Positions 5,617 to 56,347 of a stretch of 64,000 bases of DNA are shown here, one piece after another. Origin of the DNA: an uncultured Gammaproteobacteria bacterium (GTDB lineage Bacteria; Patescibacteriota; Patescibacteriia; Patescibacteriales; UBA12465); NCBI GenBank assembly GCA_964517555.1, contig CAZFEF010000001.1:56598-120597 (forward strand), read 5' to 3'. The notes under the pieces were generated by a model. It saw nothing but the letters and a program-made list of their open reading frames with translations. It made no database searches and was not told where the DNA came from. Positions within the stretch are counted from its first letter, which is position 1; the number at the start of each line of letters is the position of its first letter. A program made the position numbers and the translations under genes.

Positions 5617-5620
5617 ATAA

Positions 5621-6790: not shown

Positions 6791-6909
6791 ATAGCTTAAT
6801 TATATAATACCGACAGGTTTTGGCAACTGGTATAACTATTTCCCTGTCTTGGCAAATTATGTTATAATAAAAGCAGCTAATTGACTTAATTATTAAGCCA
6901 AGAATTATT

Positions 6910-7872: not shown

Positions 7873-7935
7873 TTTTTTTATTTAGATAGATAAAATAGTC
7901 CAGAAAATGGGCTATTTTTTGTTTTCTAATTTATA

Positions 7936-7964
7936 TTGACATAAACGATTAAACGTGATATACT
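7936..7964 (+). promoter_or_regulatory. sigma70-like promoter (TTGACA-17-TGaTATACT) upstream of the GT4 gene
   Basis: TTGACA at 7936-7941, 17-nt spacer, extended -10 TGaTATACT at 7956-7964, 20 nt upstream of the ATG at 7984. Confidence 0.5.
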
Positions 7965-7983
7965 ATGGAGTTAGTAAAACTAT

Positions 7984-9093
7984 ATGAAAATTGCTTTAAT
8001 TGGACAAAAAGGTATCCCCTTAAACCATGGCGGCGGCGTGGAAAAACACGTTGAGAACTTAGCCGTTAGATTAGTGGAATTAGGCCATGAGGTTTTGGTG
8101 TATACTCGTCATAACTATACTGACAAGAGACTGAAAGAATACAAAGGCGTAAAGATTATCAGTCTGCCCAGTATTAATTCTAAAAACTTGGATGCTATCA
8201 CCCATACTTTTTTGGCTTGTATTGATGTTATTTTCCGTAAGGTAGATGTGGTTCACTTCCATTCGATTGGGCCTTCTTCTCTGCTGTGGCTAGTGCGTTT
8301 GTTTAGACCCAAGACTCCGGTCTTGGCCACTTTTCACAGTCAATGTTATTTCAACGAGAAATGGGGACGCTTCGCCAAATGGTATTTGCGTTTAGGTGAA
8401 TTTATGGCTTGTCGAGTGGCTACTCAGTTGATTGTCGTTTCTAAGTCTTTAGAGAATTATGTTGGCAAAAAATACAACAATCCTCGCATGGTTTATATCC
8501 CTAATGGTGTAAATACCCCTGATATCCTTGAGGCTCAAGAGATTAGGACTCGTTGGGGCTTGGAAAAAAATAGTTATATCTTAAACTTGGGGCGCTTGGT
8601 AAAAAACAAAGGAATTGAATATCTAATTTCCGCTTTTAAGAAAACCCAAACTGACAAGAAGCTAGTTATTACCGGGGATGGTCCGATTTTGGAAGAATTG
8701 AAAACCTTAGCTGGCGATGATCGTCGTATTATTTTTACCGGTAGCCACACTGGCCAAGTTTTTGGTGAATTATTCTCTAACGCTTTATTGTTTGTCCAGC
8801 CTTCCGAATCAGAAGGTCTGTCTATTTCTCTATTGGAAGCTATGTCCTATGGTCTTCCCTGTTTGGTTAGTGATATTCCGGCTAACGTTGAGGTGGTGGA
8901 AAATTCAGCTTTGATTTTTAAAAGCCAGGACGAAAATGACTTATTGGCCAAATTAAATTTGGCTTTAGATAATCCGGAACTCTTACAGAGAAACCGAGAA
9001 CAAATGCTGACTTTGGTCAAGCAAAAGTACTATTGGCCTGACCTGGTCGACCAAATTGTCTCGGTCTATCAAAAATCTACTAAAAAAGCTTAA
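7984..9093 (+). CDS. GT4-family (GT-B) glycosyltransferase
   Basis: C-terminal EX7E-type motif region (SESEGLSISLLEAMSYGLPCLVSD) and N-terminal GT-B fold signature. Confidence 0.8.
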   Translation: MKIALIGQKGIPLNHGGGVEKHVENLAVRLVELGHEVLVYTRHNYTDKRLKEYKGVKIISLPSINSKNLDAITHTFLACIDVIFRKVDVVHFHSIGPSSLLWLVRLFRPKTPVLATFHSQCYFNEKWGRFAKWYLRLGEFMACRVATQLIVVSKSLENYVGKKYNNPRMVYIPNGVNTPDILEAQEIRTRWGLEKNSYILNLGRLVKNKGIEYLISAFKKTQTDKKLVITGDGPILEELKTLAGDDRRIIFTGSHTGQVFGELFSNALLFVQPSESEGLSISLLEAMSYGLPCLVSDIPANVEVVENSALIFKSQDENDLLAKLNLALDNPELLQRNREQMLTLVKQKYYWPDLVDQIVSVYQKSTKKA

Positions 9094-39834: not shown

Positions 39835-40011
39835 ATTACTTAAAAAATATTAAATTATACAAAAATTATAGCATATTTTACACTTTAAAACCCCGTGTAG
39901 GAATAGAACCCATTTTCACAAGGCTTCTTGGAAGCTTTCATGGGTTTTAGCAGGTGTGTGGGTCAGGGCAAAATGAGACAAATGAGACACTATAAAAAGG
40001 GTTTTCAAGTC

Positions 40012-41268
40012 TCATTTATTACAATTAAGGCCAATAACGGAAATATATTGATCGTTTGAATATATCTTTTCAACACTTGACAAAATAGAAGAAAAATCAT
40101 CATAACTAATATTCTCATCATTATTGAAAATTACAAAGATTCCGTAGCCAGAATCCGTTCCTTGAATGTACTGAATCAACTTCTTCCTATAATTTGACCT
40201 ATTTTTAAATCCTGACAACTCGGTATTAGTAGTGAGCTTTAATTCAATTAATATTGAACCTACAAAGCCATAAGAAACTAAAAAATCGGTTCGCTTATTA
40301 TCCAATAATTGAGTTTCTCTTCTGATGCTAATTTCTTCTTTTCTGAGCCCACCTTTTAATAAGCAATTTTCGATCTGACTATTAATCGTTTTTTGTATAA
40401 GATCCTCCTGTTTTCTGCCTGCCTCAATAATAAATCTATACGCACCCTCACTTTCAACCCATTGCCTCAAATCAGTTTCGAATATTTTTTTTACAAATTC
40501 AAATAAATCTCTTTTTGTAGCTATATCTAAATACATCATACCCTTAAGCTGATTATACTTTTTTATACAATCGGCAATATTTTTTGGTTTACCCAAATAC
40601 TCAATATATTCTTGCTTTAAATTTTGGAATTTATACCTAAGCCAATTAACTCCTGGCTTCTTGGAATTATTAATAATAAATTTTTCCAAGTCTCTAAGAT
40701 AACTATACGTATTATGCTCCTTTAAATTTTTATAATACTGAATTACAATTTCCCAGAGATAACTCGAATACGAATAATAAGGCTTGCCCTTTGAATATAT
40801 AACTAAAGAGTCTTTTAATAAATCCAAAAATAATTTCTTGATATCGCATTTTAATACCCAGACCGTTCTTTGATTATTTTTGGAAACCTGATTGGCAAAT
40901 TCTGCTAAACGATAAACAGCCCGATGAGTACCTTTATCTAAGCGGCACGAATAGGAATCAGAGATAAATTGTTTATCAAAATATTGATAGATTTCCCGGT
41001 AAAGCAAATGGTGGAGCAATCTGTCTCGGACTGTCGCTTTATGAATATTTCTCGGTTTGGGATCGGAAATATTAAAGGCTTGGTAGTTGCTATGTTTGTA
41101 GGTCTTGTTTTTTAAATCATGGTGGAGGCTAATGATATTATCCATTAATCTGCCTTGAAACAGTATTACGTCATTACGTTTTCTTTTACCCGTCAAAAAC
41201 TCCTCCCAAGCTAGAAGTAAGTTGGCAGTGGTAATAATATCTTCGTATTTTTTAATAAATTTCTTCAT
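40012..41268 (-). CDS. DGR-type reverse transcriptase homolog, N-terminal RT motifs 1-3 only, fused to an unrelated ~230-aa C-terminal region
   Basis: LLLAWEEF…GKRKRNDVILFQ…PKPRNIHKATVRDRLLHHLLY…FISDSYSCRLDKGTHRAV…VLKCDIKKLF matches the DGR RT finger/palm motifs 1-3. No motif 4 (GxPxG) or YxDD catalytic box follows. Confidence 0.6.
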   Translation of the reverse strand: MKKFIKKYEDIITTANLLLAWEEFLTGKRKRNDVILFQGRLMDNIISLHHDLKNKTYKHSNYQAFNISDPKPRNIHKATVRDRLLHHLLYREIYQYFDKQFISDSYSCRLDKGTHRAVYRLAEFANQVSKNNQRTVWVLKCDIKKLFLDLLKDSLVIYSKGKPYYSYSSYLWEIVIQYYKNLKEHNTYSYLRDLEKFIINNSKKPGVNWLRYKFQNLKQEYIEYLGKPKNIADCIKKYNQLKGMMYLDIATKRDLFEFVKKIFETDLRQWVESEGAYRFIIEAGRKQEDLIQKTINSQIENCLLKGGLRKEEISIRRETQLLDNKRTDFLVSYGFVGSILIELKLTTNTELSGFKNRSNYRKKLIQYIQGTDSGYGIFVIFNNDENISYDDFSSILSSVEKIYSNDQYISVIGLNCNK

Positions 41269-41274
41269 AAAAAT

Positions 41275-41643
41275 ATGAGTACAATTCTTCGCCCACCGGT
41301 CGTGCTCGTTAAAGCTAAGGAGACCTACGCGATTTGGTTCAAAGTTTTGGCTGACTTTCCTAAAGCTTATCGCTATAACCTGGGTGGCAAGATTGAAAAC
41401 TCTTTTTTATCAATTTTAGAAAATATTTTTATCACTGCTTATCTTTCTGGAGAAAAGAAACAAGCGCAGCTATGCTTGGTAATTACCAAACTTGATGGTC
41501 TAAAATTTTTTCTGCAGCTGGCCTGGGAAAATAAATGCCTTTCTAATAATAAATATTCTTGTCTTTCTGAGCAGTTAGAAGAAATTGGTCGGATGCTGGG
41601 TGGTTGGAGAAAAGGTTTAGAAATGAAAACTCCCGCCAAATGA
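41275..41643 (+). CDS. avd: Avd-like four-helix-bundle protein (DGR accessory variability determinant / 23S-IVS protein family)
   Basis: About 120 aa. YAIWFKVLADFPKAYRYNLGGKIENSFLSILENI matches the four-helix-bundle (Avd) family. It sits between the template repeat and the RT gene but on the opposite strand. Confidence 0.6.
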   Translation: MSTILRPPVVLVKAKETYAIWFKVLADFPKAYRYNLGGKIENSFLSILENIFITAYLSGEKKQAQLCLVITKLDGLKFFLQLAWENKCLSNNKYSCLSEQLEEIGRMLGGWRKGLEMKTPAK

Positions 41644-41659
41644 ACGGGAGAATATCAAT

Positions 41660-41768
41660 AATTGCGGGAGAAAACCTGGTTGCCATCGTTCCACTCGTTA
41701 GGATTCTCAACCGAGTTCGCCTTGACGTTCCAGCCATCGTCATTCCAGTTCACGTTCACAGCACGGAG
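41660..41768 (-). repeat. DGR template repeat (TR), 109 bp
   Basis: Matches the variable repeat at 42127-42235 except for 18 positions that are all A on the minus strand in the TR, plus one synonymous C/T difference. In the target-gene frame the variable positions are AAC/AAT/GAC/GAG codons (LRAVNVNWNDDGWNVKANSVENPNEWNDGNQVFSRN). Confidence 0.85.
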
Positions 41769-42103
41769 GCATCGATTATGTACTGAAAACCGTCTAGATC
41801 ACCGTCCTTCGGCTTAATGCCCCGGGATTGTATATTATTCGGGACCTGAAAGTCCACCAGTTTTCAGTACCAATTATTGAAGTTTTTGAAGAAGTCTCTC
41901 CTACTCTCGCGCTAGGCTTGCCCGACGCGACTCCGAGGCTAAGAATTCTGAAATCATGGCGAAATAGCCGTAACCGTTTCGCGATTCTTGGTTTCATATC
42001 AATGTATCATAAATAAGCGGAAATAAAAAGACCCTCGGACTGTTTCAGTTTTCAAGAAGAAAAAAGAAAGAGTCAAAGGGTCATAGATTCAAAGGTACAA
42101 GGG

Positions 42104-42796
42104 TTAAACGGTCTTAGTGACCGAGGAATTGCGGGAGAAAACCTGGCTGCCACCGAACCACCCGAGAGGACTCCCAACCGAGAGCGCCTCGACGTACCAG
42201 CCACCGCCATCCCAGTCCACAGTCACAGCACGGAGTGTACCAGTGATGTCACGGATATAGAAGATATTGGCGTAACCGTTATTAAGCAGCTCGCTTTTTT
42301 CTCCGTTTGCCTGACGCTCCATCATGGCATACATTTCTGATAAAGTGGTTTCGGATTTTTCCTGGCCACCAAGTTCGGAAATGATAGGGCCATCAACCGA
42401 TCCCCGGTTTAGCTTGCGTCCGTAAACTGTACTGCCGGCAAAGGGTTCTTCGGTTTTCTCTGTAAACCAGGCTTTGAAATTATCACCTACATAGGAAATC
42501 TTGACCTTAGCCTTCTTGCCCGTGTCAACCACAAATTTATCTTTAGCGACAAATTTTTCGGTGGTGGCAGAGAGAGTAACAGTTGAAATCACTTCGCTCA
42601 AGATAGCAGGGGCTGGTGGAACATCAGTCTTAGAGCGGTTAGTGATTGCCTGAATAAACAGGTCAATTCCCTCTCCGGCGTTTTGAATGAGCCACTGGGC
42701 GTCATCATTTGATAATTTTTCGAATCTGTCCTGGAATTCTACCATTCTCCCAGCGATCATGTGCTTCTGTTTTGTTGTTGCCATTTTGGCCTCCAA
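42104..42796 (-). CDS. DGR target (variable) protein, 230 aa, C-terminal VR
   Basis: The VR lies in the last about 40 codons (…LRAVTVDWDGGGWYVEALSVGSPLGWFGGSQVFSRNSSVTKTV*). No signal peptide is evident. Confidence 0.7.
   Translation of the reverse strand: MEAKMATTKQKHMIAGRMVEFQDRFEKLSNDDAQWLIQNAGEGIDLFIQAITNRSKTDVPPAPAILSEVISTVTLSATTEKFVAKDKFVVDTGKKAKVKISYVGDNFKAWFTEKTEEPFAGSTVYGRKLNRGSVDGPIISELGGQEKSETTLSEMYAMMERQANGEKSELLNNGYANIFYIRDITGTLRAVTVDWDGGGWYVEALSVGSPLGWFGGSQVFSRNSSVTKTV
42127..42235 (-). repeat. DGR variable repeat (VR) at the 3' end of the target gene
   Basis: See the TR entry. The substitutions relative to the TR are adenine-specific. Confidence 0.85.
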
Positions 42797-42935
42797 TTTT
42801 TACAGGTTTTAAAAGAATTTTCTGCGCTTCACCCAGCAGAATTTGGGCATTATTCTTTATTAAATTAATGTATAATTATATCACGTAATTAGACTTATGT
42901 CAAGCCGAAATAAAAATAAACCGTGGGCAGAATAA

Positions 42936-43298
42936 TTACCTACAACGCCTCTTCTTCTTAATAAAATCAAGAGTCAAATTTATCTCTTCTATTATTCTTG
43001 GGTTTTCATTCACCCAACAATTTTTAAGACCAATTAGAATCCTCTCGGAAACTTCATAATATCTTCTAAAATTTCTAAGTTCAAAAACAATAGCTATTTG
43101 TCTGTCTAGTTTTTTGTCTTGTCTACCAGACTCAATATCAACTAAATCTTCTACTAACTTGTGGTATATTTGAAAATTCCTATTTTTACGATAATCTCCA
43201 AATTTTATAATCGACCAAGCTATAACAAAGATACTCACTAGTATGCCCAGAGCTCCTGTATAATCATTTAAAAATGCGAAAATTTTGATAAACCACAT
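42936..43298 (-). CDS. hypothetical membrane protein (120 aa)
   Basis: N-terminal TM helix. ORF only. Confidence 0.35.
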   Translation of the reverse strand: MWFIKIFAFLNDYTGALGILVSIFVIAWSIIKFGDYRKNRNFQIYHKLVEDLVDIESGRQDKKLDRQIAIVFELRNFRRYYEVSERILIGLKNCWVNENPRIIEEINLTLDFIKKKRRCR

Positions 43299-43548
43299 AG
43301 TTTTTTATAATTAAAGTCCACTAAGATCGCCCTGATTTTTATAAATATGAATTGCCCCAATACTAATCATCTTGACGATCTGAGACAAAATCGCCAGAAC
43401 AAGCGATCTTCAGGTATGTGGGTCATAAAAAGACGTTTTTCATCAACGCACGCCATAGTCACGATAATTGGAACTGAGATGAGGAAGAATAATGATGTAT
43501 TTGTAACAACAATTTAATACTACCCCAGTGTCGCTCACTATATATCTT

Positions 43549-43770
43549 TTATGCTTTATCTTCAGGAAATAACTCGTAATATCCTGTCGGATTGTTCTCT
43601 CGCAAAAACTTTTTGAAAGATTTCACCTCTTTTTCAGTAAGGGGCTTATTATTTTCAGGGTCATTATTATCCTCCCAGCCATAGTCTTTTACAATCTCTC
43701 GCTTACTCAACCTAGGATCATTCTTCCAGGACCTTAAAATGGAATTAGCTTTTTGAATTTCCACAAACAT
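43549..43770 (-). CDS. hypothetical protein (73 aa)
   Basis: ORF only. Confidence 0.3.
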   Translation of the reverse strand: MFVEIQKANSILRSWKNDPRLSKREIVKDYGWEDNNDPENNKPLTEKEVKSFKKFLRENNPTGYYELFPEDKA

Positions 43771-43899
43771 ATATTTTTGTTTATTAGTTTTAATTTACCG
43801 ACCCACCGCCGGGGTTGACCCCCTGCCACACACCACCGACGATCGCGTGGTAGCAGTTTCGTATGGGAGAAAATATTTTTCAATTTGACAGGAGAATTT

Positions 43900-44241
43900 T
43901 TAAAATTTTATTGGCTCTTTCTTTTTCCCTTTATTTTCTATAATGCTCCGCCAATCTTTTACCCCTTCTACAAACAATAATGATAAACTAATGAAAAGAA
44001 TCAAATAACCAAAATTGCCGGCAATACGATCCTCTTCGGGACCCAATAACATATTTAATCCAATCGGGATTAATACAAGGCCAAAAAAGCCGAACCAACC
44101 TCGACAACCAAGTATAAGTGGTAATAATGGCAATATTAAAATAATTTTAAAAATTTCTATTAAATCTTTTTTAAACTTCATATTTCGCGTAGGATTTATC
44201 TGGGTCGAGGAAACAAAAAAGGTCTCCCGACACAGCGACAA
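43900..44241 (-). CDS. hypothetical small membrane protein (113 aa)
   Basis: Two to three hydrophobic helices. Confidence 0.35.
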   Translation of the reverse strand: MSLCRETFFVSSTQINPTRNMKFKKDLIEIFKIILILPLLPLILGCRGWFGFFGLVLIPIGLNMLLGPEEDRIAGNFGYLILFISLSLLFVEGVKDWRSIIENKGKKKEPIKF

Positions 44242-44420: not shown

Positions 44421-45338
44421 TTATGTTTTATTAAATAATTTATCAGCAATATCTATAATCTCAATCTTTTTAGCAACTCCATTAATCCACCTTTCCGGTA
44501 TTCCGTCGATTCCATAATAAGCACCGGCTAATTGTCCGTATATTGCAGCTGTAGTATCAGCATCGTCTCCCAAGTTTACGGCTTTTAGCACGCCCTCTTC
44601 AAAAGTCTCCGAATTATAAAACGCCCACAAAGCGGCTTCAAGCGATTTAACCACATAGCCCGACCCCTGAATAAAAGGCGGCTGCTGATTTTTATACGAT
44701 CCGAGAGCTACGGTTTCTGTCTCTTTAACTAATTTATTTTCAATCCAAAAATCTTTTATAGGGCAAAAAAGTGGTTGCAACAACTCCTCTTTAGTCGCTC
44801 CGTTTAATGCTCCAATAATAAGCCCGGAGTAATATTTACAAGCATCAGCACATAATTGTGATTCGTGAGTTACTCTAGAACTTAATTCTGCATATTTAAT
44901 CGCTTCAAAAACATTGTCTCTAAAATACAGTGGGATTGGGGCTATGCGCATCAAGCTACCATTACCATCAGAATTTCTAGAAGAAGTAGTTACATAAGGA
45001 TTTTCTCCGTTGTAAGCTACTAGAGCCCTTAAAACTGTCTGGCCAACGCCGAATGATCTGCCAGTGCTAGAGCAATAACCGGTTTCAAGCCATTTTTTAT
45101 ATTTATCAGCTTGATCCTTGGGGTCAAAACCCATACTCTCAATTAAACTATTAGCGAGACACAAAGCCATCGCTGTATCATCAGACCAACACCCCGATGG
45201 GAGGCGATTAGAATCTTCAAAATCATTAACGGGTTTAAAACTTCCTATAGATTTGAATTCTACTGGGACTCCAAGAGCATCGCCTATTGCCAAGCCAATC
45301 AATGATCCGCGATATTTTTTCAACAATTCACTATTCAT
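44421..45338 (-). CDS. ADP-ribosylglycohydrolase family protein (DraG/ARH-like)
   Basis: N-terminal GSLIGLAIGDALGVPVEF and C-terminal LGDDADTTAAIYGQLAGAYYG are diagnostic of the ADP-ribosylglycohydrolase fold. Confidence 0.8.
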   Translation of the reverse strand: MNSELLKKYRGSLIGLAIGDALGVPVEFKSIGSFKPVNDFEDSNRLPSGCWSDDTAMALCLANSLIESMGFDPKDQADKYKKWLETGYCSSTGRSFGVGQTVLRALVAYNGENPYVTTSSRNSDGNGSLMRIAPIPLYFRDNVFEAIKYAELSSRVTHESQLCADACKYYSGLIIGALNGATKEELLQPLFCPIKDFWIENKLVKETETVALGSYKNQQPPFIQGSGYVVKSLEAALWAFYNSETFEEGVLKAVNLGDDADTTAAIYGQLAGAYYGIDGIPERWINGVAKKIEIIDIADKLFNKT

Positions 45339-45353
45339 TATTCGATAAATTAT

Positions 45354-45599
45354 TTATTTCTTAACATCAAGTCCATAAAATAATCCGGCAGCCTTATCGC
45401 CAAATTTTTCGTAAGCAATATCATCGAGCCCGCTCCTTAGCCCTCCAAATGACTCCTCAACGGTCCGCCACCTCTTTAATAGTTCGGTTTTGGGTAATTT
45501 AGAGCTCAAATATGTAAATAGTTCATTAAGGCTTCTTCTGGTATCTTTTGCCTTAGAACCAATTTCCCTGCAATCTTGTAAAGTAAAAATGTCGTTCAT
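45354..45599 (-). CDS. hypothetical protein (81 aa), immediately upstream of the ARH gene
   Basis: ORF only. A 15-bp gap to the ARH gene suggests an operon. Confidence 0.35.
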   Translation of the reverse strand: MNDIFTLQDCREIGSKAKDTRRSLNELFTYLSSKLPKTELLKRWRTVEESFGGLRSGLDDIAYEKFGDKAAGLFYGLDVKK

Positions 45600-45872
45600 A
45601 GATTTAATAGTTAATATTTATAGATTATGGGCCATTTTGCTGAGTCCATCTCTATATATTTTAACTGAAAAATCATCGATTAGCCAGAGCAATTTATGGT
45701 TTGTTTATTTTCGATTCAACCTTATCTAAAGGGTTCTGCCCAACAGCTAATTTAACTAAATTAACCAGATTTAAACCTTTTTCAATGGCCTCGGATTTAC
45801 TTATTTTCTTATGAAATCTTTTCTCATAAAGCGCCTGAAACTCTAATATTTCCTCATCGGTAAAATACATAT

Positions 45873-47375
45873 TTATAGATTATTAAACATTTTGTCCAAA
45901 CCATCCTTCAAAACCATCGTCGCTTTGCAATCGTCTTCATTGTAAATCTTAATTCTCTCCAATGTCTTTTCGTCTCCGGTTTCTAAATAATCGTTATACC
46001 ACTGAATCGATAATGCTCCTGATGGGGTCTCATCTCGCCACTTAAACCCTAAATAAACAGCCAGCTCTTTTATGGAATAACTTGGTAGCGGCCAGTCTGT
46101 GTGCTTTAAAACTACCTGATATAAATCAACTGTATTTTCCTGTTCAAAAAATTGTAATACTTCCTCGGCCGAAATGACATCCGGGTATTGTTTCTGCAAT
46201 TTTTTATAGGTAGTTTTTTCGTGAGGTGAATAGTAATAAACCGAATAATCATTCTCAGGCAAAGTTTTAATATACTTCCAAAAATTGGCCCAAGCTTCTT
46301 TTTCTCCGTCCGGCGTATTATCTTTAGCCGTAAAATCTATAAAACGTTCACCCTTAGGGCTGCGCTCATAAACTCCGTGCAGATAAACAAATTCCTGAGT
46401 CGGGTCATCTTCAATGTCAAAAAATAATTCATAATTAGTTTTAGGTAATTTAATTTTTTTATAAGCTACTGGGGCTTTAATATTTAATAGGACATTTGCT
46501 CTCTTAATAATTTTAATTAGAGTATCAGGCCCAACTCCTTTTAAAAATTTCTTATCCTTCTTTTTTTTCTCAGTAATATATTCTAAATCAATTCCTAATA
46601 TATCCTCAATTTTATAAATTCCCAATTCTTGGTTGATGATATCCCTCTTGCTACGACCAACATAAAACAATCCAGTTAAATCATTGTTTTCAAAAACCCA
46701 TTTTTTGCAACTACTATACCAGGGGCAGAGTTTACATTGACCAAAATAAGCGGGTAAATTCTGAGCCTTATTTTGTAAAAGTAAATCAACATTATTTTTT
46801 ACTGTCTTATAATAATCCCAGACAGTTGTTTTTTCCCTTTGATTTAATAATTCATTTAAGTTATAAACCGCTTCCTCTTTATGGACGTCTAAAATAATCC
46901 CTTTATTTTTATGCTCAAATCCCAATATCTCCAGAAGTTCAACATAAAAAGCCAATTGGACGGCATAATGCTTTTTCATTTTCCCGCCCTCTCCACTTTC
47001 CTCATCGACTCCAGCAAAGCCCATACCAGATTTTATCTCTATCGGGATATAAGTTCCATCAGGCTCCAATCTTAATAAATCAGGAATCCCTAAAAGATTC
47101 TCATACTGCAAAACCCCTTGATAAATCAAAGGGGTTTTATTATTTAAAGCTTCTAAGGTTTTTTTCGCTCGTTCTTCGTAGTTACCGTCACTTAAATCTA
47201 AAGTATTGCCAAGACCTTTCACCACATCTTTTTCAAACTGAACTCCTCGGTCCCAAAGCATCTGCACAAAAGGATTGATCTCTTTTATTTTTTCTTCCTG
47301 CGGACCATAAGCGTCTCGCCACACACGGTGCGGACATTGAGTATAATCATAAAGCTTTGATCCGGTAATTTTCAT
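45873..47375 (-). CDS. RecB/Cas4-like PD-(D/E)XK nuclease (TM0106-type) with C-terminal RNase-H-like region
   Basis: N-terminal YDYTQCPHRVW…, EIK, and a Cys cluster (CKLCPWYSSCKK) as in Cas4/RecB-family nucleases. The start overlaps the upstream GmrSD-like gene. Confidence 0.55.
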   Translation of the reverse strand: MKITGSKLYDYTQCPHRVWRDAYGPQEEKIKEINPFVQMLWDRGVQFEKDVVKGLGNTLDLSDGNYEERAKKTLEALNNKTPLIYQGVLQYENLLGIPDLLRLEPDGTYIPIEIKSGMGFAGVDEESGEGGKMKKHYAVQLAFYVELLEILGFEHKNKGIILDVHKEEAVYNLNELLNQREKTTVWDYYKTVKNNVDLLLQNKAQNLPAYFGQCKLCPWYSSCKKWVFENNDLTGLFYVGRSKRDIINQELGIYKIEDILGIDLEYITEKKKKDKKFLKGVGPDTLIKIIKRANVLLNIKAPVAYKKIKLPKTNYELFFDIEDDPTQEFVYLHGVYERSPKGERFIDFTAKDNTPDGEKEAWANFWKYIKTLPENDYSVYYYSPHEKTTYKKLQKQYPDVISAEEVLQFFEQENTVDLYQVVLKHTDWPLPSYSIKELAVYLGFKWRDETPSGALSIQWYNDYLETGDEKTLERIKIYNEDDCKATMVLKDGLDKMFNNL

Positions 47376-47380
47376 AAATA

Positions 47381-49084
47381 TTAATCAAACTTTTTCATAA
47401 AAATATTTATTGCGTCAGCGATAGCCTTTCTTCTATAGACAAGGAAGTCTATATATTTATCTAATTCCCACAAATCCTTATTTGTCGGTATTAATTGCGA
47501 AGTTAATGCATCTTCACCACGTTTTTCAACAACCTCTTTCTCGAGATATTTTATAGGCTCTTTATTAGTAATCTGTCTATTAGTTTTACCACCAATAAAA
47601 GCCATATTAGATATCTCATTGACTTCTTTTTGATCATACATAGCCTTAATTAAAGACTTTGGAAAAATATGGTGATATTGAATAGTGTGCGCCCTTCCAA
47701 CGTGACTATCGGCCAATTTTAAACCAGTCCACCAATCCTTAGCCTCATTCTGTCGCAAAACAAAATATAGCATTGAAAATAAAGGACTTCTGATTCCTTT
47801 AAATGCTAAGTCGTCTGAATCAACAACAAATTTTTTAACGTGCAAATGTAATTGATTAATTAATTCATCTAATCCCTTCTCTTTAAACAGAATAGATAAG
47901 TCAGCATCCAATATAGACTCAGATGAACCCATACTGTAGTGTCCTCTCATATGAGCCAAATAAAACCACTTTAACATTTTCTTCTCATCCTCTGGGCTTA
48001 ATTTATAATCATTTAGAGCTGAATAAAGTGCGATTGGCACTAATAAAAATGGAGAGGAAAGAAATCTAAGACTATCAATGCCGGCATTATTTCTGATAAA
48101 ATTTATAGCAAATTCTAAGCTACCAGTTGCGGTCTTCCACGATTCTTCCAATTTTTGTTTACTTAACTTCCCAACAGTTTTAAATTTACTTTGATGAGTC
48201 GCAAATATTGTTAACATACGAACTGGCAAACCAGTTTCAACAATATAATCCTCATCGCCATCAAACTGACCGGCAAAATTTTCTATAAGATCCATAAAAC
48301 CCTTCCACTTAGAAGTGATTTGGGCTAAGGCCAAATCAGAGCCTCTTAATTTAATGCCCAAGGAGTTAACTCTAACGAAAATTTCGGTAACCTCTTCATA
48401 TGACATTCTTTTTTCTAAAACCTGCATAACATATTGATAGTCTGATATTTTTTTAACTTTTTGTAATCTTTCGGAATATTTATCCCACTTCTCATCATCT
48501 GAATTTATACCAATAGATTTTAATATCTGGTTTTCGGTTTTCTTAAAAATATCAGAAACCAAAACCCAAACTGGATCGTTTTGCAAGGAGCGGCTCGCTA
48601 CTACGAATGTTCTCTTTTTCATATCCTGTTGAATATCCCTCTCTGCGCTCTCTTCATCCTCAACTTCCTCAATATCTGCATTAAAATCGCTCTCATCATC
48701 AACTAAAAGTTCTACTGGTGGGCCATCTGGATGTTCTAAGTTAAAAAGAATATCAATCGGTCTTCTGCGTCCCCTAACCTTAACTGGTTCTCCAGTTAAA
48801 ATAGCTGATAATGAAGTAACTCTTTGTTGTCCATCTAATAATAAGAGCTTCTGTGACGTCGTAGGACTTTTAGTAGCTTCAACCGCCAAACCTCTATCTT
48901 GGATATCTTCATCTGTCTCCCAAACCAAAATTGTTCCAGATGGATATCCTCGATACAGAGAATCTAATAAATCGCGGACTCTAGTAGCTGGCCATACATA
49001 GCGACGCTGCATTTCCGGCAACGTTAATTCATTTCTTAAAACCTTGTCGACTAATTCACGGACTGTTATATCTGTTTTTGGCAT
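47381..49084 (-). CDS. GmrSD-like DUF262 (ParB-like) + DUF1524 (HNH-like) putative type IV restriction enzyme
   Basis: N-terminal ELTLPEMQRRYVW…SGTILVW…LLDGQQRVTS (DUF262 signature). C-terminal HTIQYHHIFPKS…NMAFIGGKTN (DUF1524 His-Me finger). Confidence 0.75.
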   Translation of the reverse strand: MPKTDITVRELVDKVLRNELTLPEMQRRYVWPATRVRDLLDSLYRGYPSGTILVWETDEDIQDRGLAVEATKSPTTSQKLLLLDGQQRVTSLSAILTGEPVKVRGRRRPIDILFNLEHPDGPPVELLVDDESDFNADIEEVEDEESAERDIQQDMKKRTFVVASRSLQNDPVWVLVSDIFKKTENQILKSIGINSDDEKWDKYSERLQKVKKISDYQYVMQVLEKRMSYEEVTEIFVRVNSLGIKLRGSDLALAQITSKWKGFMDLIENFAGQFDGDEDYIVETGLPVRMLTIFATHQSKFKTVGKLSKQKLEESWKTATGSLEFAINFIRNNAGIDSLRFLSSPFLLVPIALYSALNDYKLSPEDEKKMLKWFYLAHMRGHYSMGSSESILDADLSILFKEKGLDELINQLHLHVKKFVVDSDDLAFKGIRSPLFSMLYFVLRQNEAKDWWTGLKLADSHVGRAHTIQYHHIFPKSLIKAMYDQKEVNEISNMAFIGGKTNRQITNKEPIKYLEKEVVEKRGEDALTSQLIPTNKDLWELDKYIDFLVYRRKAIADAINIFMKKFD

Positions 49085-49103
49085 ATAATATTTAAATTAA
49101 TAA

Positions 49104-49298
49104 TTATTTAATTAAATAAGCTATAAAAATAAAAATAGAAAAAATAATAAACCAAATAATAACTTTGCTAATTTTTTTAGCTATTCCATCTTTTACGTGC
49201 CCACCGACTGACTTCCAAAAATTTTTTGAAGAAATTATAGAGATGCCCCATATTACAAGTAAAACTATTACGATTGAAATTAATATTTGTTTTAACAT
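49104..49298 (-). CDS. small TM protein (64 aa)
   Basis: Two hydrophobic helices. Embedded in the defence operon. Confidence 0.35.
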   Translation of the reverse strand: MLKQILISIVIVLLVIWGISIISSKNFWKSVGGHVKDGIAKKISKVIIWFIIFSIFIFIAYLIK

Positions 49299-49303
49299 AA
49301 TTT

Positions 49304-50035
49304 TTAATTATTGTCTTTCTTACCAAAATTTAAAGTGGTAATATTTAAATATTGATATAAAAAATCTTCAGTCTTCTCAAGTATTTCATTGGTCGCCCCT
49401 TCAATTTGTGGAAAGTTTCTAGTTGAAGTTTCAATCCAAAATATCTTACCTTTTTCGAAAGACTCGTCCCGCTGCTTTTCAAAAGAATCTATTGCATATT
49501 GTGTTAATTGGCCCCTGATTGGATTGGTCTCCAACAGCATAGTCTCCGCCATCTCCATATTAATAACGTTAGTATCCACAAATCTATCATTCCCGTGCCT
49601 ATGAGTCCCACGGTGGGTGGACACACCCTTAAAAACTTTGAATATTTGATCGTTTACAAATTTTAATGCTTTAGAAACTTCTTCTTTATTTTTTGCAATC
49701 CGTTTTAAGTCATTCTTAAGACAGCCAATATAATTGGTGAGTTTATTTTTTAATGTCTCAACATCTTCAAGGTATGCGTGAATATGATGCTCTAATGCCT
49801 CACGATTTTTTATATTTTTCGATAAGGGATAAAACTCTAAAAAATATACTTCATATCTAGATATTTTATTAAGAAACCATTTTATGGAGCTAATTATTCT
49901 AAAATATTTATCAACCGAATCTTTCTCAAAATCTTTACTAAATATAATTTTATTTTTATAGTCGGCCTCAAAAAATTCTGGATGAGAATAACTGAGCAAG
50001 TCGTTTAAAATTTTATCAATCTCTTTATTACCCAT
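49304..50035 (-). CDS. hypothetical protein (243 aa), possible HEPN/Abi-like
   Basis: Contains an Rx4H-like stretch (THRGTHRHGND). Sits directly downstream of hsdR. Assignment is weak. Confidence 0.35.
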   Translation of the reverse strand: MGNKEIDKILNDLLSYSHPEFFEADYKNKIIFSKDFEKDSVDKYFRIISSIKWFLNKISRYEVYFLEFYPLSKNIKNREALEHHIHAYLEDVETLKNKLTNYIGCLKNDLKRIAKNKEEVSKALKFVNDQIFKVFKGVSTHRGTHRHGNDRFVDTNVINMEMAETMLLETNPIRGQLTQYAIDSFEKQRDESFEKGKIFWIETSTRNFPQIEGATNEILEKTEDFLYQYLNITTLNFGKKDNN

Positions 50036-50083
50036 AACTATTTATTACAAAACTTATTAATTACCTTTCTCATTTTCGACAGT

Positions 50084-53047
50084 CTATTCTTCTCTTAACG
50101 CCAGAACCTTATCAACTACAAATCGCAACATTTTCTTTTCAATATATTCGTTTAACTCTTTATTGTTTGCGAGAGTTTCGTAAAGTTTTTTATCGGTATC
50201 ATATTTATCAAAAACTTTATTTTCAAACGGTTTATGAAACCATCTACCGACCGCCTGCATAGAACTGTTGTTATAAACAACGTTTTGAGCTTCTTCATCA
50301 CTCACCAACTCTTCGCCAATAGAATTAAGGGTTTTTTGTTGATCCTCTCCAAAATCTAAACCCCAGTGCTTATTAACATCACCAATTATCTGTGAAATAA
50401 GATCCTCTGTTTCTTCAAAAGGAACCCCGGGAACTATCTCGTCCTGGTGGACATCGCCAGTTTCCGGTGAAAGAGTAATACTTGATTGAAGTTTGCGAAC
50501 TACACGCACCGAATCCATATCAACATATTTTAAAATTTCGATAAGCGGCTTCTTAGGATCCTTAGGCATTTTTTTCAGAAGATATTTCAATAAAAGATAT
50601 AGCTTCTCGTGAGAGACCTCTGAATAGCCAACAACCTGAGCGAGATATGGATAGCGCTTTGTGTAAACATTGCCAATCGAAAGGAATTCTCCATACTTAT
50701 CCTCAACTATTACATCGCCATTACTTTTGTGAGGTAACTCGGCAATAATTTGTTTGGCAATTTTATCCAAAAAGGCGTTAGCATTTTGATGTATCTCTTC
50801 AGCATTTGGATCAATCAAGGCAACAAAACCATCAAGCACTTCATCACTAAAATTATAAACAGCGAAAAGCGCTTGCCGCAAATCATTAAGCGCATTTATA
50901 TCCGTCCCCTCAGAAATTATTGTGCTGGTATAATAAGGTTCAAATGCTTGTTTAATATCATCCACCTCATTTACAAAATCAAGAACATATACCTGGTCTT
51001 TATCTCGTGCGGTCCGATTTAGACGAGAAAGGGTTTGAACTGCCTGCACGCCAGACAAATGCTTATCTACATACATCGCACATAAAAATGGTTCATCGAA
51101 TCCAGTTTGATATTTTTCGGCTACGATTAAAAAACGATACTCAGCTTTTTTAAATTCTTTGGCAGTATTATCTTCAGGAATTCCTTCGTTAATAGAGGTT
51201 TCAGTATATGACACGCCATCTATCTCGATTGAATCAGTAAATGCCGCCAATGTTTTATGAGTATAATTATGCTCGCGCAAATAATGATCTAAAGCTAACT
51301 TATATCTAACAGCAGCTTCTCGTGACGAGGTCACAATCATTGCTTTAGATTCTCCCCGCAATAAGTCCTTAACCGTCTTCTCAAAATGTGCCATAATTAC
51401 TTCTATTTTCTGGTTTAAAGTAGTTTCGTGAAAATTGACGTGCCGCAAGATAGCAGACAATGCCCGTGCGCGCGGAACAGTCGGATCTTCGGCTGCTTTT
51501 TTCAAAAGTTTAAAATAAGTTTTATAGGTAGTATAATTTGATAGGACATCAAGAATAAATTTCTCTTCAGTCGCCTGCTTCATAGAATATAAACTGAAAG
51601 GTTGGAAGGAACCATCTGGTTGTTTTTCGCCAAATCGTTCTAAGGTTTCGTGCCTAGGTGTTGCTGTAAAAGCAAAATAACTTATATTACTTGGCTGTTG
51701 ACGACTTTCTACTTGTTGGACAAGCCAATTTTCAACATCTTCTACGCCAAGTCGATCCTGCACTGCTCGCGTAAGTTCACCTGACTGAGAAGAGTGTGCT
51801 TCATCTACAATGAGTGCAAACTTTTTTGCAGAGAGTTTATTAACCAACCCATTTACAAACGGAAATTTATGAATGGTGGAAGTAATTATCTGCGCATCAC
51901 CCTCAAGTGCATCTTTTAAACGCACGCCGTCTTCGCCGGCCGGGACAAATATTCCCGACACCGGTGATAATGCTCGAATAATTTCTCGCAACATTTTATC
52001 TAATACACGACGATCAGTTAAAACAATTACTGCGTCATACACTCTTTCATTTTTTTCATCAAAAAGATTAATTAAGCGATGCGCTAACCAGGCGATAGTT
52101 AAACTTTTACCACTGCCAGCGCTATGTTGAATAAGATAGTTCTTCCCAGCATTATGTTCTTGCGAAGCTAAAAGTAAATCTAAGACAGTCCGCCATTGCT
52201 GGTAACGTGGGAAGAGTTGAATTGGTTGTTTATATTCCCTGCCTAAACGATCCTCACGAACTTCATCATAGGCGTGAACAAAAAACTGCAATAAATCAGC
52301 TAATGAATCTGGCGCCCAAAGATTTTCCCAAATATAGTGGGTTTTGTGCTTACCTTCTATGGGCGGATTACCAGCGCCTAATTCAAATCCTTTGTTGAAT
52401 GGCAAGAAAAAAGTGCGCTCGTTTTTTAACTCAGTAGTAACAAAAGCCTCGCTTGTATCCATAGCAAAATGCGCCACGCAACGCTTGAATGCAAAAAGTT
52501 TTTCACGGGGATCACGATCATTTTGATATTGGCGAATGGCGTGATAAACGTTTTGACCGGTTAACTCATTCTTCAATTCGGCAGTAATAACTGGGATACC
52601 ATTTATAAAAAGCACAGCATCGATAGATTGCTCCGTTGTTTGTGAAAATTTTACTTGGCGAGTAATAGAAAAAATATTTTCATTATACACTCGCTCAACA
52701 TCTTGATTTTCAGCATTTACAGGACGGAAATAAATAAGATCAAATTTAACAGGCCCATCTTCAACCCCCTTGCGCAAGCAATCTATAATTCCACGTCTAC
52801 CAATTTCCTCATCAATCCGACGAACTAATCGTGACTCAAAATCATCGCCAGATATTTTTTGAAGCTTAGAAAGTTTTTCACCCTGAGTGGCACTCAAAAA
52901 TTCAAAGAGAAGTTCTGCATCAAAAGTAGTTATCTTATCATAGTCCTTCTCGGCATTTCGCTTACGAAAACCGTGCAGGCGGGCAAGCTCTTTTTCAATA
53001 TGTTTTTCAAATTCAATCTCTTTCAAATTTTGATGAATGTTTGGCAT
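50084..53047 (-). CDS. hsdR: type I restriction enzyme R subunit
   Basis: N-terminal PD-(D/E)XK region (FINGIPVITAELK) and SF2 helicase motifs, including LIVDEAHSSQSG. Confidence 0.9.
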   Translation of the reverse strand: MPNIHQNLKEIEFEKHIEKELARLHGFRKRNAEKDYDKITTFDAELLFEFLSATQGEKLSKLQKISGDDFESRLVRRIDEEIGRRGIIDCLRKGVEDGPVKFDLIYFRPVNAENQDVERVYNENIFSITRQVKFSQTTEQSIDAVLFINGIPVITAELKNELTGQNVYHAIRQYQNDRDPREKLFAFKRCVAHFAMDTSEAFVTTELKNERTFFLPFNKGFELGAGNPPIEGKHKTHYIWENLWAPDSLADLLQFFVHAYDEVREDRLGREYKQPIQLFPRYQQWRTVLDLLLASQEHNAGKNYLIQHSAGSGKSLTIAWLAHRLINLFDEKNERVYDAVIVLTDRRVLDKMLREIIRALSPVSGIFVPAGEDGVRLKDALEGDAQIITSTIHKFPFVNGLVNKLSAKKFALIVDEAHSSQSGELTRAVQDRLGVEDVENWLVQQVESRQQPSNISYFAFTATPRHETLERFGEKQPDGSFQPFSLYSMKQATEEKFILDVLSNYTTYKTYFKLLKKAAEDPTVPRARALSAILRHVNFHETTLNQKIEVIMAHFEKTVKDLLRGESKAMIVTSSREAAVRYKLALDHYLREHNYTHKTLAAFTDSIEIDGVSYTETSINEGIPEDNTAKEFKKAEYRFLIVAEKYQTGFDEPFLCAMYVDKHLSGVQAVQTLSRLNRTARDKDQVYVLDFVNEVDDIKQAFEPYYTSTIISEGTDINALNDLRQALFAVYNFSDEVLDGFVALIDPNAEEIHQNANAFLDKIAKQIIAELPHKSNGDVIVEDKYGEFLSIGNVYTKRYPYLAQVVGYSEVSHEKLYLLLKYLLKKMPKDPKKPLIEILKYVDMDSVRVVRKLQSSITLSPETGDVHQDEIVPGVPFEETEDLISQIIGDVNKHWGLDFGEDQQKTLNSIGEELVSDEEAQNVVYNNSSMQAVGRWFHKPFENKVFDKYDTDKKLYETLANNKELNEYIEKKMLRFVVDKVLALREE

Positions 53048-53051
53048 AATT

Positions 53052-54311
53052 TTATATTTTAATTTTACCCGTCACCGCAGAATAGATAAGCGACGAGCGA
53101 TATTCTTTTAGTTGATTAGTCTGTGAATTAATAAGTATAATGGCTTTATCTATTTTATCCGTCTCTACATCTAAATAGCCTGAAATCAATTCTTGCTCCT
53201 GTATGCCTGGAACTTGCACAGAGAGAGAAAGTAGATCCCACTGATTAAGAGTTGATCGCACGCCCATTCCCAAAAAATTAAAAATACCCTGTAAATATAA
53301 CGAATAGTATGCCCAATAAAAATATTTGGATATTAACTTTGAATTAGGAACTATACGCAAATAAGCTGAACTCATAATTCCTTTTTCAGGCACTATGCCG
53401 ACACGACTTGTTTGACGATTTTCAAGATCTATTAATTTAAACACTAAATCATCTTTATAAAAAATTTGATAACTTGCATAATCGGCTGGGACTAAACTTC
53501 TAGCCTCGTAGTCCTCCTTATTAATAACACCCCTGAGAGTTAAAGCTAAAATATGATCGCATTGATATTTATCATTAAGTTCTTTTTTATATCTAAATAT
53601 AAATTTTCCTCGACGCATCTCCCATTTACTAGGAATACCGCCCACCCAATCAACATTAGAAGATTTCATTTCAACTTTTGAATCGAGACCCCTGGTAACA
53701 GCACTAATAATAATCGCGGCACGTTTTTCACGCAATAAATCAACCATTTTTTCTTTCTTTGCAATCAACTCGTCAATAATTCTTGTTTTCTTATCTAGAA
53801 AATCAGCGATTTGCTGTTGGCTCTCAATGGGAGGGACAAGAATCGGAAAATTTAAAAGAATCTCGTCTTTTAATACCCAACGATGGTCAACTGAAACACC
53901 TTGGCCAAAAGGAAAAAATATCTCATTTAAATAATGCCATTGAAAAAAATATTTATAGTATTTTAAAAATAAAACTGCCTTTTCTTTTTTACGAATCGTA
54001 GTATACGCCAAACTAATAACACCATCAAAAATAGAGAGATCTACCGCTCCAGTGCGAAGATCCATAGGATTAAAAACTATATCGTCTTTTCTGATACGAG
54101 TATAACTTTCATAAGTCTCTGCTATTTGACCTTCATTATTAGATATATCTCTAATTTTAATCCCCTTTTGAGTCAAGGAGAGCACTGGAAGATCTTCGCC
54201 TGAATTTTTTTCTTTAGATATTTCAAATAAATTTTTAATACGAAGCAGCTCCCAATTTTTAGGAGTATTGTTTAACCAACTAATTTTAGATAAATTTACA
54301 ATATCTTTCAT
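53052..54311 (-). CDS. hsdS: type I restriction-modification specificity subunit
   Basis: Two target-recognition domains separated by conserved helical spacer regions. Overlaps the hsdM stop codon. Confidence 0.8.
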   Translation of the reverse strand: MKDIVNLSKISWLNNTPKNWELLRIKNLFEISKEKNSGEDLPVLSLTQKGIKIRDISNNEGQIAETYESYTRIRKDDIVFNPMDLRTGAVDLSIFDGVISLAYTTIRKKEKAVLFLKYYKYFFQWHYLNEIFFPFGQGVSVDHRWVLKDEILLNFPILVPPIESQQQIADFLDKKTRIIDELIAKKEKMVDLLREKRAAIIISAVTRGLDSKVEMKSSNVDWVGGIPSKWEMRRGKFIFRYKKELNDKYQCDHILALTLRGVINKEDYEARSLVPADYASYQIFYKDDLVFKLIDLENRQTSRVGIVPEKGIMSSAYLRIVPNSKLISKYFYWAYYSLYLQGIFNFLGMGVRSTLNQWDLLSLSVQVPGIQEQELISGYLDVETDKIDKAIILINSQTNQLKEYRSSLIYSAVTGKIKI

Positions 54312-56347
54312 AATTTTTTAAGATTAGAAAGAATTTCTTCCTCTATTTTTTTAATATCTATCTCTATTTCATCGAATTTACGCGGTTCTCGGTATTCATA
54401 GAAAAATCTCGTGAAAGGAATTTCATAACCAATAACACCAACACCTTGGTCTTTTCCGTCACAAACACTTTCATCTACCCAAGCATCTGGTGCATAAGGT
54501 TTTACTTCTTTTTCAAAGTATTTGTTTATATCCATCCCCCACGGCACACGTTCATAATCCTTAAGCTCGTTATCGGCCTCTTGTTTTCCATTCTCATCCA
54601 AACAAATCTCGCCCTCTTCATCGCGCTCACCAATTTGCTGCCAAACAATTTTAGCAATTCTTTTAGTAGTTTTAAGATTTCTTTTTTTGAGTTCACTTTC
54701 TAATTTTTCTAAAAAATCAACCCGTGAAATAATTATTTCCCCTTGTATGCTTTCCAGTATTTCATAAATAGCGGCGCGAAGCTCCTGCCATAATTTATTT
54801 TCCTCATCGCCTTTTTCACCTTTTTTCTTACTCGGCACGTCATTTAAGAAATCCTTATGATTTTTCAACCGTTCTAAAGTTTTACTATTGATTTCAAATT
54901 TAAGACGAAGCGGGCGCTGAATCGTAATCTGCCGATAAGCAAAATCGGTTGTGTTAAATATTTTTACCTGTTCAGTATTTTTATTTTCAATATAATGCTC
55001 TAAAATTTCCTGCGCATTTTCATCAGTTATTTCATAGCGCTTCTCTCCAAGATTTTTTCGCAGCTGTGTGCGAATATTACGTGCATCAACTAGCATCACT
55101 TTGTTTTTTCGATCAACAGGTTTTTGTGTTGAAAATATCCAAATATACGTAGAGATTCCGGTATTAAAAAATAATTTTTCAGGAAGAGCAACAATCGCAT
55201 CTAATAAATCATTTTCTAAAATCCAGCGACGTATTTCACTCTCACCACTGCCGGCATCACCGGTAAAGAGTGGTGAACCATTAAAAATAACAGCTGCTTC
55301 ACCTCCACCTTCTTCTTTTGTTTTTAATTTAGAAATAATATGTTGCATAAACAAAAACTGCGCATCGGAAATCCTAGGTAACCCAGCGCCAAATCTGCCA
55401 GAGAATCCTCGTTCTGCCTCACTCGCAACTGCAGTTTTATCCTTTTCCCAACTCACCCCAAAAGGAGGATTGGAAAGAACGTAGTCAAACCTCTGCCCTT
55501 GATGTTGATCGTTAGACAGCGTGCTTGCCTTGGTGTGCTCCTTGTCACCGCCCTTAATTGAGTCAATATCCTCGCCCTTAAGCAGCATATCTGCCTTACA
55601 GACCGCGTAAGTAGTTGAATTAAGCTCTTGGCCATAAAGAAAAATCTTAGCATCCTTGTTAAAGTGAGTCTGAATATAGTCCTTACTTACGGTGAGCATT
55701 CCACCAGTGCCGCAAGCTGGATCATAAATCTCTTTAATCGCGCCCGGTTTAGCTAACTCCTTCTCTTTACCAGTAAAAAGCAAGGATGTCATAAGACGCA
55801 CCACGTCGCGTGGAGTATAGTGCTCTCCGGCTGTTTCATTAGATTGTTCAGCAAAGCGACGAATAAGATCTTCAAAGGCAAGGCCGATAATATGGTTTTC
55901 TACTTGGTCAGGATGAAGATTTATTTTATTAAACTCTTTTAGCGCAAGATAAAGCAATTCTGACTCGTGCAATTTATCTAAAATCCTATCAAATTCAAAT
56001 TTAGCAAAAATTTCTTTAACATTATCGGAAAAACCATCGATATATTTGCGTAAATTAGGCGCGGCTTGCGTCGGCGCTTCTAAAAGCTTTTTGAAAGTAT
56101 AGGGTGAAGTATTATAAAAATTATATCCGGTTGTGCGATAAAGAATGTTGAGATTTTTAACGCGACCATCGAGCTCATTAAACCGCTCCAGGGTTTTTTG
56201 TTTTGTTGGTTCAAGGGCGTCGTCCAATCTCTTAAGGACAGTCAGGGGCAAAATAACATCCTGATAATCTTGAGCCTTAAAAGTGCCTTGCAGATGGTTC
56301 GCAATATTCCAAATCGTATTAGATATTTCTCGATAATTTGTTAACAT
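54308..56347 (-). CDS. hsdM: type I restriction-modification N6-adenine DNA methyltransferase subunit
   Basis: Motif I (IYDPACGTGGML) and motif IV (LSNPPFGVSW). Confidence 0.9.
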   Translation of the reverse strand: MLTNYREISNTIWNIANHLQGTFKAQDYQDVILPLTVLKRLDDALEPTKQKTLERFNELDGRVKNLNILYRTTGYNFYNTSPYTFKKLLEAPTQAAPNLRKYIDGFSDNVKEIFAKFEFDRILDKLHESELLYLALKEFNKINLHPDQVENHIIGLAFEDLIRRFAEQSNETAGEHYTPRDVVRLMTSLLFTGKEKELAKPGAIKEIYDPACGTGGMLTVSKDYIQTHFNKDAKIFLYGQELNSTTYAVCKADMLLKGEDIDSIKGGDKEHTKASTLSNDQHQGQRFDYVLSNPPFGVSWEKDKTAVASEAERGFSGRFGAGLPRISDAQFLFMQHIISKLKTKEEGGGEAAVIFNGSPLFTGDAGSGESEIRRWILENDLLDAIVALPEKLFFNTGISTYIWIFSTQKPVDRKNKVMLVDARNIRTQLRKNLGEKRYEITDENAQEILEHYIENKNTEQVKIFNTTDFAYRQITIQRPLRLKFEINSKTLERLKNHKDFLNDVPSKKKGEKGDEENKLWQELRAAIYEILESIQGEIIISRVDFLEKLESELKKRNLKTTKRIAKIVWQQIGERDEEGEICLDENGKQEADNELKDYERVPWGMDINKYFEKEVKPYAPDAWVDESVCDGKDQGVGVIGYEIPFTRFFYEYREPRKFDEIEIDIKKIEEEILSNLKKL

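Follow-up and report, generated by a model that had tools for sequence, protein, structure and literature searches.

A patescibacterial DGR reverse transcriptase truncated after motif 3 and fused in frame to the C-terminal domain of a NACHT/DUF8371 protein: a probable chimeric remnant

The window, i.e. the whole 64-kb stretch of patescibacterial DNA that was analysed, contains an uninterrupted 418-aa ORF on its minus strand that is very probably the chimeric remnant of two genes. In this ORF, microhomology-mediated illegitimate recombination appears to have fused the gene of a clade-typical 331-aa DGR reverse transcriptase (RT), cut at codon ~145, in frame to an unrelated defence-type gene of the NACHT/DUF8371 family (~1334 aa), entered at codon ~1060 (Table 1). 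The 418-aa product would be devoid of polymerase activity, since the YxDD aspartates and the thumb, which RT enzymology holds to be required, are missing. The death of the RT at this locus is ordinary gene decay, and the fusion remnant inactivates the DGR in cis. An earlier note on this DNA, made from the letters and their ORFs, had seen special mechanistic interest in the gene; what is found instead is an ordinary recent fusion remnant.

Table 1. Features of the chimeric ORF, of the surrounding DGR and of the adjoining defence island (positions in the window)
Feature	Position	Strand	Remarks
Chimeric ORF, 418 aa, RT N-terminal half :: NACHT-protein C-terminal domain	40012..41268 (including stop codon)	-	Very probable chimera; uninterrupted; same ORF in Logan contig L001
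Unambiguous RT part, codons 1-143, fingers and palm start through motif 3 (...VLKCDI)	40840..41268	-	79% identity to P0002/P0007; includes motif-3 Asp142
Crossover microhomology AAGAAATT, codons K144-K145-L146	40832..40839	-	DNA alignment with L005/L006 NACHT genes and L002 RT gene
NACHT-gene-derived tail, aa 146-418, DUF8371 (PF28130) region	40012..40831	-	Counterpart in L005 (1334 aa): residues ~1061-1333
Predicted PD-(D/E)xK nuclease-like alpha-beta-beta-beta-alpha-beta core, aa 287-415	40024..40410	-	Family-invariant E288, D328, E342, K344
NACHT gene 3' flank, ~40 nt, brought in with the tail	39971..40011	-	End of L005/L006 homology; 9-nt tandem repeat inside
avd, intact, 122 aa, accessory four-helix-bundle protein	41275..41643	+	Head-to-head with RT start codon
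Template repeat (TR)	41660..41768	-	109-nt direct repeat of VR
Variable repeat (VR), 3' end of target gene	42127..42235	-	109 nt; sole VR copy in window
DGR target gene, intact, 230 aa from TTG start (226 aa in Logan call)	42104..42796	-	Homologous target (59% identity) beside intact RT in L017
ADP-ribosylglycohydrolase	44421-45338		Defence island adjoining DGR
PD-(D/E)XK + RNase-H-like protein, 500 aa	45873-47375		Defence island
GmrSD	47381-49084		Defence island
Type I R-M hsdR	50084-53047		Defence island
Type I R-M hsdS	53052-54311		Defence island
Type I R-M hsdM	54308-56347		Defence island

Over residues 1-147, the ORF can be aligned gap-free with 331-aa DGR RTs from Patescibacteria and Falkowbacteria, at 79% identity to two of them (P0002 and P0007), and all clade-invariant residues are retained in this half. 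The DGR-RT N-terminal fingers and motifs 1-3 are present (PKPR..., RDRLLHH..., SYSCR..KG.H and LKCDIKK), and the PADLOC RT model scores 64.5 bits across residues 9-155. In the same way, residues 9-155 align to residues 10-151 of the bRT of Bordetella phage BPP-1 (PDB 8ub7; E 1.8e-14), whereas bRT residues ~152-328 are without counterpart in the query. The similarity to RTs ends at ...VLKCDIKK(LF), and the RT homology spans ~147 aa and not the ~190 aa first allotted to it. Pfam profiles returned nothing on the ORF even at E <= 1, neither RVT_1 nor, from the local Pfam copy, DUF8371; the RT fragment is too short for an RVT_1 match.

Beyond this point, related RTs go on with FFASIDH..., followed by GLPLGNLTSQ (motif 4), YIRYADDF (motif 5) and the thumb. 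When full-length RTs were used as queries in tblastn, motif 4, YxDD and thumb were found in none of the six frames of the 64-kb window. A profile HMM of the RT C-terminal half, built from 86 close RTs and run with all filters off on six-frame segments of the window, gave a best E of 0.89 (6.5 bits), which is noise. These searches uphold the initial description of an RT that has motifs 1-3 and lacks motif 4, YxDD and thumb, and a complete palm (motifs 1-7 including YxDD) with thumb is absent from the ORF. The closest known systems are the Patescibacteria/CPR DGRs, a grouping named 'DGR clade 2' by Roux et al. 2021 (PMC8144416). The N-terminus of the window RT is 65-79% identical to members of this clade, and a C-terminal VR in the target, adenine-specific TR mismatches and Avd are common to both. 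On the contrary, every relative has a complete RT of 323-331 aa, whereas the window RT ends after motif 3, without motifs 4-7, YxDD and thumb.

The tail of the ORF, which measures ~272 aa and not 230 aa as had been stated, belongs to another protein family. It is 93% identical in amino acids and 89% in nucleotides to the C-terminal ~275 aa (aa 1059-1333) of a 1334-aa ORF recovered in the metagenome scan (L005, 6815..10819), with a blastn match spanning positions 40846..39970 of the window, and it is 86% identical in amino acids to a second homologue (L006). At the N-terminus of the L005 protein lies a P-loop NTPase of the NACHT type (aa 42-196; 30 bits with Pfam NACHT), a domain that is missing from the window ORF as well as from the whole 64-kb window. 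Compared with the ~1334-aa NACHT + DUF8371 proteins, the ORF thus lacks the NACHT NTPase and the ~1060 residues preceding the tail. The sequence had been described as K/N/Y-rich and without RT similarity. The second half of this description stands, but the tail is a real and well-conserved domain and not low-complexity sequence, with 51 invariant columns across nine homologues.

A first protein search gave PF28130 (DUF8371) matches covering the tail alone; the window ORF (P0001) itself carries a precomputed PF28130 annotation and matches P0123 with an E of 9e-148. When 1.84 billion cluster representatives were searched exhaustively with HMMER, 335 family representatives were obtained, mostly of ~1330-1360 aa and matching at their extreme C-terminus, and it is from this search that the extent of the family is taken, a word-indexed protein search with the tail alone having returned 4 matches. 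Many other family members are 35-58% identical to the tail. Its full-length relatives are ~1330-aa NACHT proteins from unrelated contexts and phyla (Nitrospirota, Calditrichaceae, Planctomycetales), and the alignments run end to end (residues 1-1331) in L003, L007, L010, L013 and L019. Five shorter matches (361-455 aa) were inspected by sequence: P0246 has an internal deletion and the others are fragments at contig edges; an RT N-terminus was found in none of the five. P0246 (455 aa) is an independent truncation in which ~150 aa of a NACHT P-loop N-terminus lead straight into the DUF8371 region, with a breakpoint near the same domain boundary as that of the window fusion. In L003, the NACHT/DUF8371 gene (4351-8379) lies amid PIN, Fic and nucleotidyltransferase genes and is called as two ORFs of 851 and 441 aa; tblastn aligns it full length with the 1334-aa L005 protein, and the split is probably due to a frameshift or a stop.

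The tail also matches locally the C-terminal region of the HyoA model (NF058534, positions 1243-1382 of 1430); in NCBIfam, HyoA and EruA are antiphage NACHT proteins. The window ORF reaches 32.7 bits against HyoA and 14.5 bits against EruA (NF058535), and the intact L005 and P0123 proteins reach 33-49 bits. These scores are far under the respective cut-offs of 1200 and 1000, so the NACHT + DUF8371 family is a distant relative and not an equivalog member. PADLOC gave no matches on the tail homologues. In the literature, no papers were found on HyoA/EruA and DUF8371, and the names are not used in a 2026 STAND survey.

Modelled with AlphaFold2 from 11 aligned sequences (mean pLDDT 77.8), the tail displays eight helices and then an alpha-beta-beta-beta-alpha-beta unit. 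In the model and the alignment, the family-invariant D328 is located at the start of beta2 and E342-x-K344 within beta3. The tail is predicted from this model to be made of helical repeats and a PD-(D/E)xK nuclease-like core carrying D...(D/E)xK on beta2/beta3. As modelled, the core may be likened to PD-(D/E)xK restriction-endonuclease-fold effectors such as BamHI, BglII and Can2 and the Cap4-type domains of STAND/Avs proteins. Some residual activity of the tail may be possible, the D...ExK residues being intact. For DUF8371, which forms the C-terminus of a ~1340-aa NACHT family, this provides a first interpretation in structural terms. The earlier note had stated that motifs 4-7 in the C-terminal region would refute its reading and had proposed structure prediction as a check. 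None of these motifs was detected there, and the predicted fold, helical repeats with a PD-(D/E)xK-like core, is not that of a palm or thumb. A diverged RT palm/thumb is ruled out by homology together with the predicted fold.

It had also been proposed that the RT was truncated after motif 3 and fused to its tail by an insertion or deletion, and that related loci could reveal the breakpoint. The truncation and fusion are borne out. The comparison with the L002 RT gene and the L005 and L006 NACHT genes mapped the breakpoint to an 8-nt microhomology and identified the 3' end of a ~1334-aa NACHT/DUF8371 gene as the donor of the tail. On the minus strand, the junction in the window reads ...AAATGCGATATC AAGAAATT ATTTTTGGATTTATTAAAAGAC..., the RT relative reads ...TGCGATATTAGGAGATTTTTTGCGAGC... 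and the NACHT genes read ...GAACGATAT-AAGAA(A/T)TTATTT(C/T)TGGATTTATTAAAAGA...; when the two parents are set against each other, the RT has TGCGATATCAAGAAATT and the NACHT gene CGATAT-AAGAAATTATTTTTGGAT. Past the junction, the continuation of the intact RT type is ...AAGAAATTTTTTGC... (KKFFASIDH). DNA homology to the L002 RT extends over 41757..40828 and NACHT-gene homology begins at 40846 in blastn, which gives an imperfect overlap of 19 nt; the perfect overlap of the two homologies is limited to the 8 nt of AAGAAATT. The tblastn match of the NACHT protein begins at 40839. In parallel, GC content passes from ~0.36 to ~0.29 and GC skew flips its sign at ~40800.

The most economical history would be a microhomology-mediated deletion of ~3.8 kb between neighbouring and co-oriented RT and NACHT genes. 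Such a deletion would take away the last 185 codons of the RT and, on the other side, the first ~1060 of the NACHT gene; the donor part has lost its NACHT NTPase entirely, along with the larger part of its helical middle. Since the join is in the native frame of the donor, the ORF runs on to the donor's own stop codon, and its long open frame would be an accident with one chance in three. Alternatively, the 3' half of the RT could have been replaced by a foreign fragment of ~870 bp. A second breakpoint lies ~40 nt past the stop codon, where the homology to L005/L006 ends (~39971), and it fits a fragment insertion or replacement as well as a deletion.

Among the relatives, none was found with a DGR RT adjoining a NACHT/DUF8371 gene: NACHT genes are missing beside all the RT loci, and RTs from all the NACHT loci; the deletion between neighbours is therefore a step that we infer. 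None of the 23 loci displays flanking synteny with the window. The DGR sits at the edge of a defence island (44421-56347), located immediately upstream, and this neighbourhood makes a NACHT defence gene beside the RT plausible. An inversion rather than a deletion was rejected within the window, which contains no reciprocal NACHT-N::RT-C product. In L002, where the nearest intact RT is found, the gene that follows the RT (497 aa) is unrelated to the tail. Exact-protein look-ups of avd, of a 120-aa neighbour and of the Na/Ca exchanger returned the same sample only. In L023 (SRR21848549), identical TrpR-like, 229-aa and DUF6282 genes were observed; this contig ends at ~38104 of the window, just before the gene of a 210-aa membrane protein, and a strain-variable region may begin at that position.

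The other components of the DGR are preserved. Avd scores 58 bits with Pfam bAvd (cut-off 40) and 72.7 bits with NCBIfam NF033474 (DivGenRetAVD), just below the cut-off of 80. TR and VR display 19 mismatches over 109 nt, 18 of which are at TR adenines (10 A>G, 5 A>T and 3 A>C) and one of which is a synonymous C>T; 18 of the 28 TR adenines are substituted. The final 22 nt of the repeat (CCAGGTTTTCTCCCGCAATT...) are the same in both copies. The lone non-adenine difference is found where AAC in TR (41726-41728) becomes ACT in VR (42193-42195), i.e. an A>C plus the synonymous C>T. This C>T either arose by drift after the most recent homing or is a rare misincorporation at a non-A position.

Along the minus strand, the order is target gene with VR, TR, avd on the opposite strand, and chimeric ORF. 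The start codons of avd and of the RT are 6 nt apart, with RT, TR and target gene on one strand and avd on the other. All seven intact relatives (L002/L012 and L014-L018) share this head-to-head layout, which is thus a conserved architecture of the Patescibacteria DGR clade. With such an arrangement, the TR transcript would need to cross avd in antisense to reach the RT gene, and each promoter would have to sit within the other gene. A hairpin, CTCCCG-N9-CGGGAG followed by a T-run, was observed at ~41625-41652 on the minus strand, directly 3' of TR and overlapping the avd stop codon. It could be a bidirectional terminator or a structural element of the TR RNA.

The fusion appears to be recent, since avd, TR, VR and target gene are intact, TR and VR differ by a single non-adenine change and neither half of the chimera has decayed. 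Substitutions in the tail were counted against L006 as the outgroup: 24 synonymous and 11 non-synonymous ones fall to the window lineage, and 26 and 8 to L005. This relative-rate count shows no non-synonymous excess and no sign of relaxed constraint in the tail; it therefore neither dates the event nor shows decay. The mostly synonymous changes would fit a recent event as well as continued selection on the tail.

With an RT predicted to be inactive, the DGR would be unable to diversify VR in cis, and the target gene's VR is probably frozen as long as no other RT works in trans. If one did, the RT gene would be broken but the DGR still active, its TR RNA and Avd being used by another, intact DGR RT encoded elsewhere in the genome. 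The intact avd, TR, VR and target gene and the small share of non-adenine mismatches between TR and VR (1 of 19) go in this direction, and at least one related Patescibacteria MAG (JBAZHE..., SO_2017_LW3_62; L015 and L018) has two DGR RT + avd loci, on different contigs. However, a recent loss of the RT explains equally well that the other parts are intact, and no second RT lies within the 64-kb window. Activity in trans is considered unlikely. To our knowledge, the use of a foreign TR or Avd by the RT of another DGR has not been demonstrated for the Patescibacteria DGR clade.

A far less probable view is that the chimera is a functional new protein. The RT fingers would then be a module that binds Avd or RNA and delivers an unregulated PD-(D/E)xK nuclease domain, or the protein would be a regulator or accessory factor of the DGR. 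More precisely, a chimera made from the RT promoter could have acquired a function in which the RT-fingers module, bound to Avd or TR RNA, is tethered to a NACHT-free and possibly constitutively active PD-(D/E)xK nuclease domain, and we give this version equally little credence. The ORF is intact, D328/E342/K344 and the family-invariant residues of both halves are kept, and the tail is without excess non-synonymous change. If this were true, an accidental new effector or toxin would have arisen within a defence island.

Several observations stand against it. The fusion is a singleton: its protein cluster has one member, and no other RT-DUF8371 fusion is present among the matches from either protein search (of 5.8 and of 1.84 billion sequences). 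In addition, all seven related DGR loci have normal RTs of 323-331 aa. The singleton status and these normal relatives also speak against the suggestion, made in the earlier note, of an atypical RT-like accessory protein. Moreover, the NACHT module that the whole family carries ahead of the domain is missing, although NTPase-driven oligomerisation normally activates such nuclease effectors. This switch is established knowledge for STAND/NLR-like defence proteins (Avs7: 10.64898/2026.01.04.697583). Finally, a recent accidental in-frame join accounts for every observation.

Taken as a recent fusion remnant, the ORF is of small general importance; it is a clean and datable case of DGR death. It also illustrates how, where a defence island ends, rearrangement through microhomology can yield a chimeric ORF that looks intact. 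Such ORFs are mislabelled by gene callers and domain annotators, the present one being annotated as DUF8371 only. In the same way, DGR surveys that take any RT-like ORF beside a TR/VR pair would wrongly count the present element as complete.

The junction is real in the sequenced DNA; one read set may underlie both assemblies. Run SRR8925755 yielded a Logan contig (k=31) that matches positions 44019..39972 of the window at 100% identity (4048 nt) and has the junction away from its ends. The stretch common to the two parents, at most 8 perfect or 19 imperfect nt, is too short for a de Bruijn assembler to make the join. That the assembler wrongly joined an RT and a NACHT gene present intact in the community can be suspected from the metagenomic origin of the genome and from a graph branch just 3' of the ORF (39972..39999), but it is hardly credible given this separately built contig, a shared stretch shorter than any assembly k-mer and the lack of a graph branch at the junction itself. 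The branch 3' of the ORF corresponds to a 28-nt overlap between two Logan contigs; it takes a little certainty from the connection with the Na/Ca-exchanger gene further downstream and leaves the fusion unaffected. The same 28 nt coincide with a 9-nt tandem repeat that follows the stop codon, present as two copies of TGTCTCATT in the window and as three copies of TGTCCCATT in L006 (~2010-2040).
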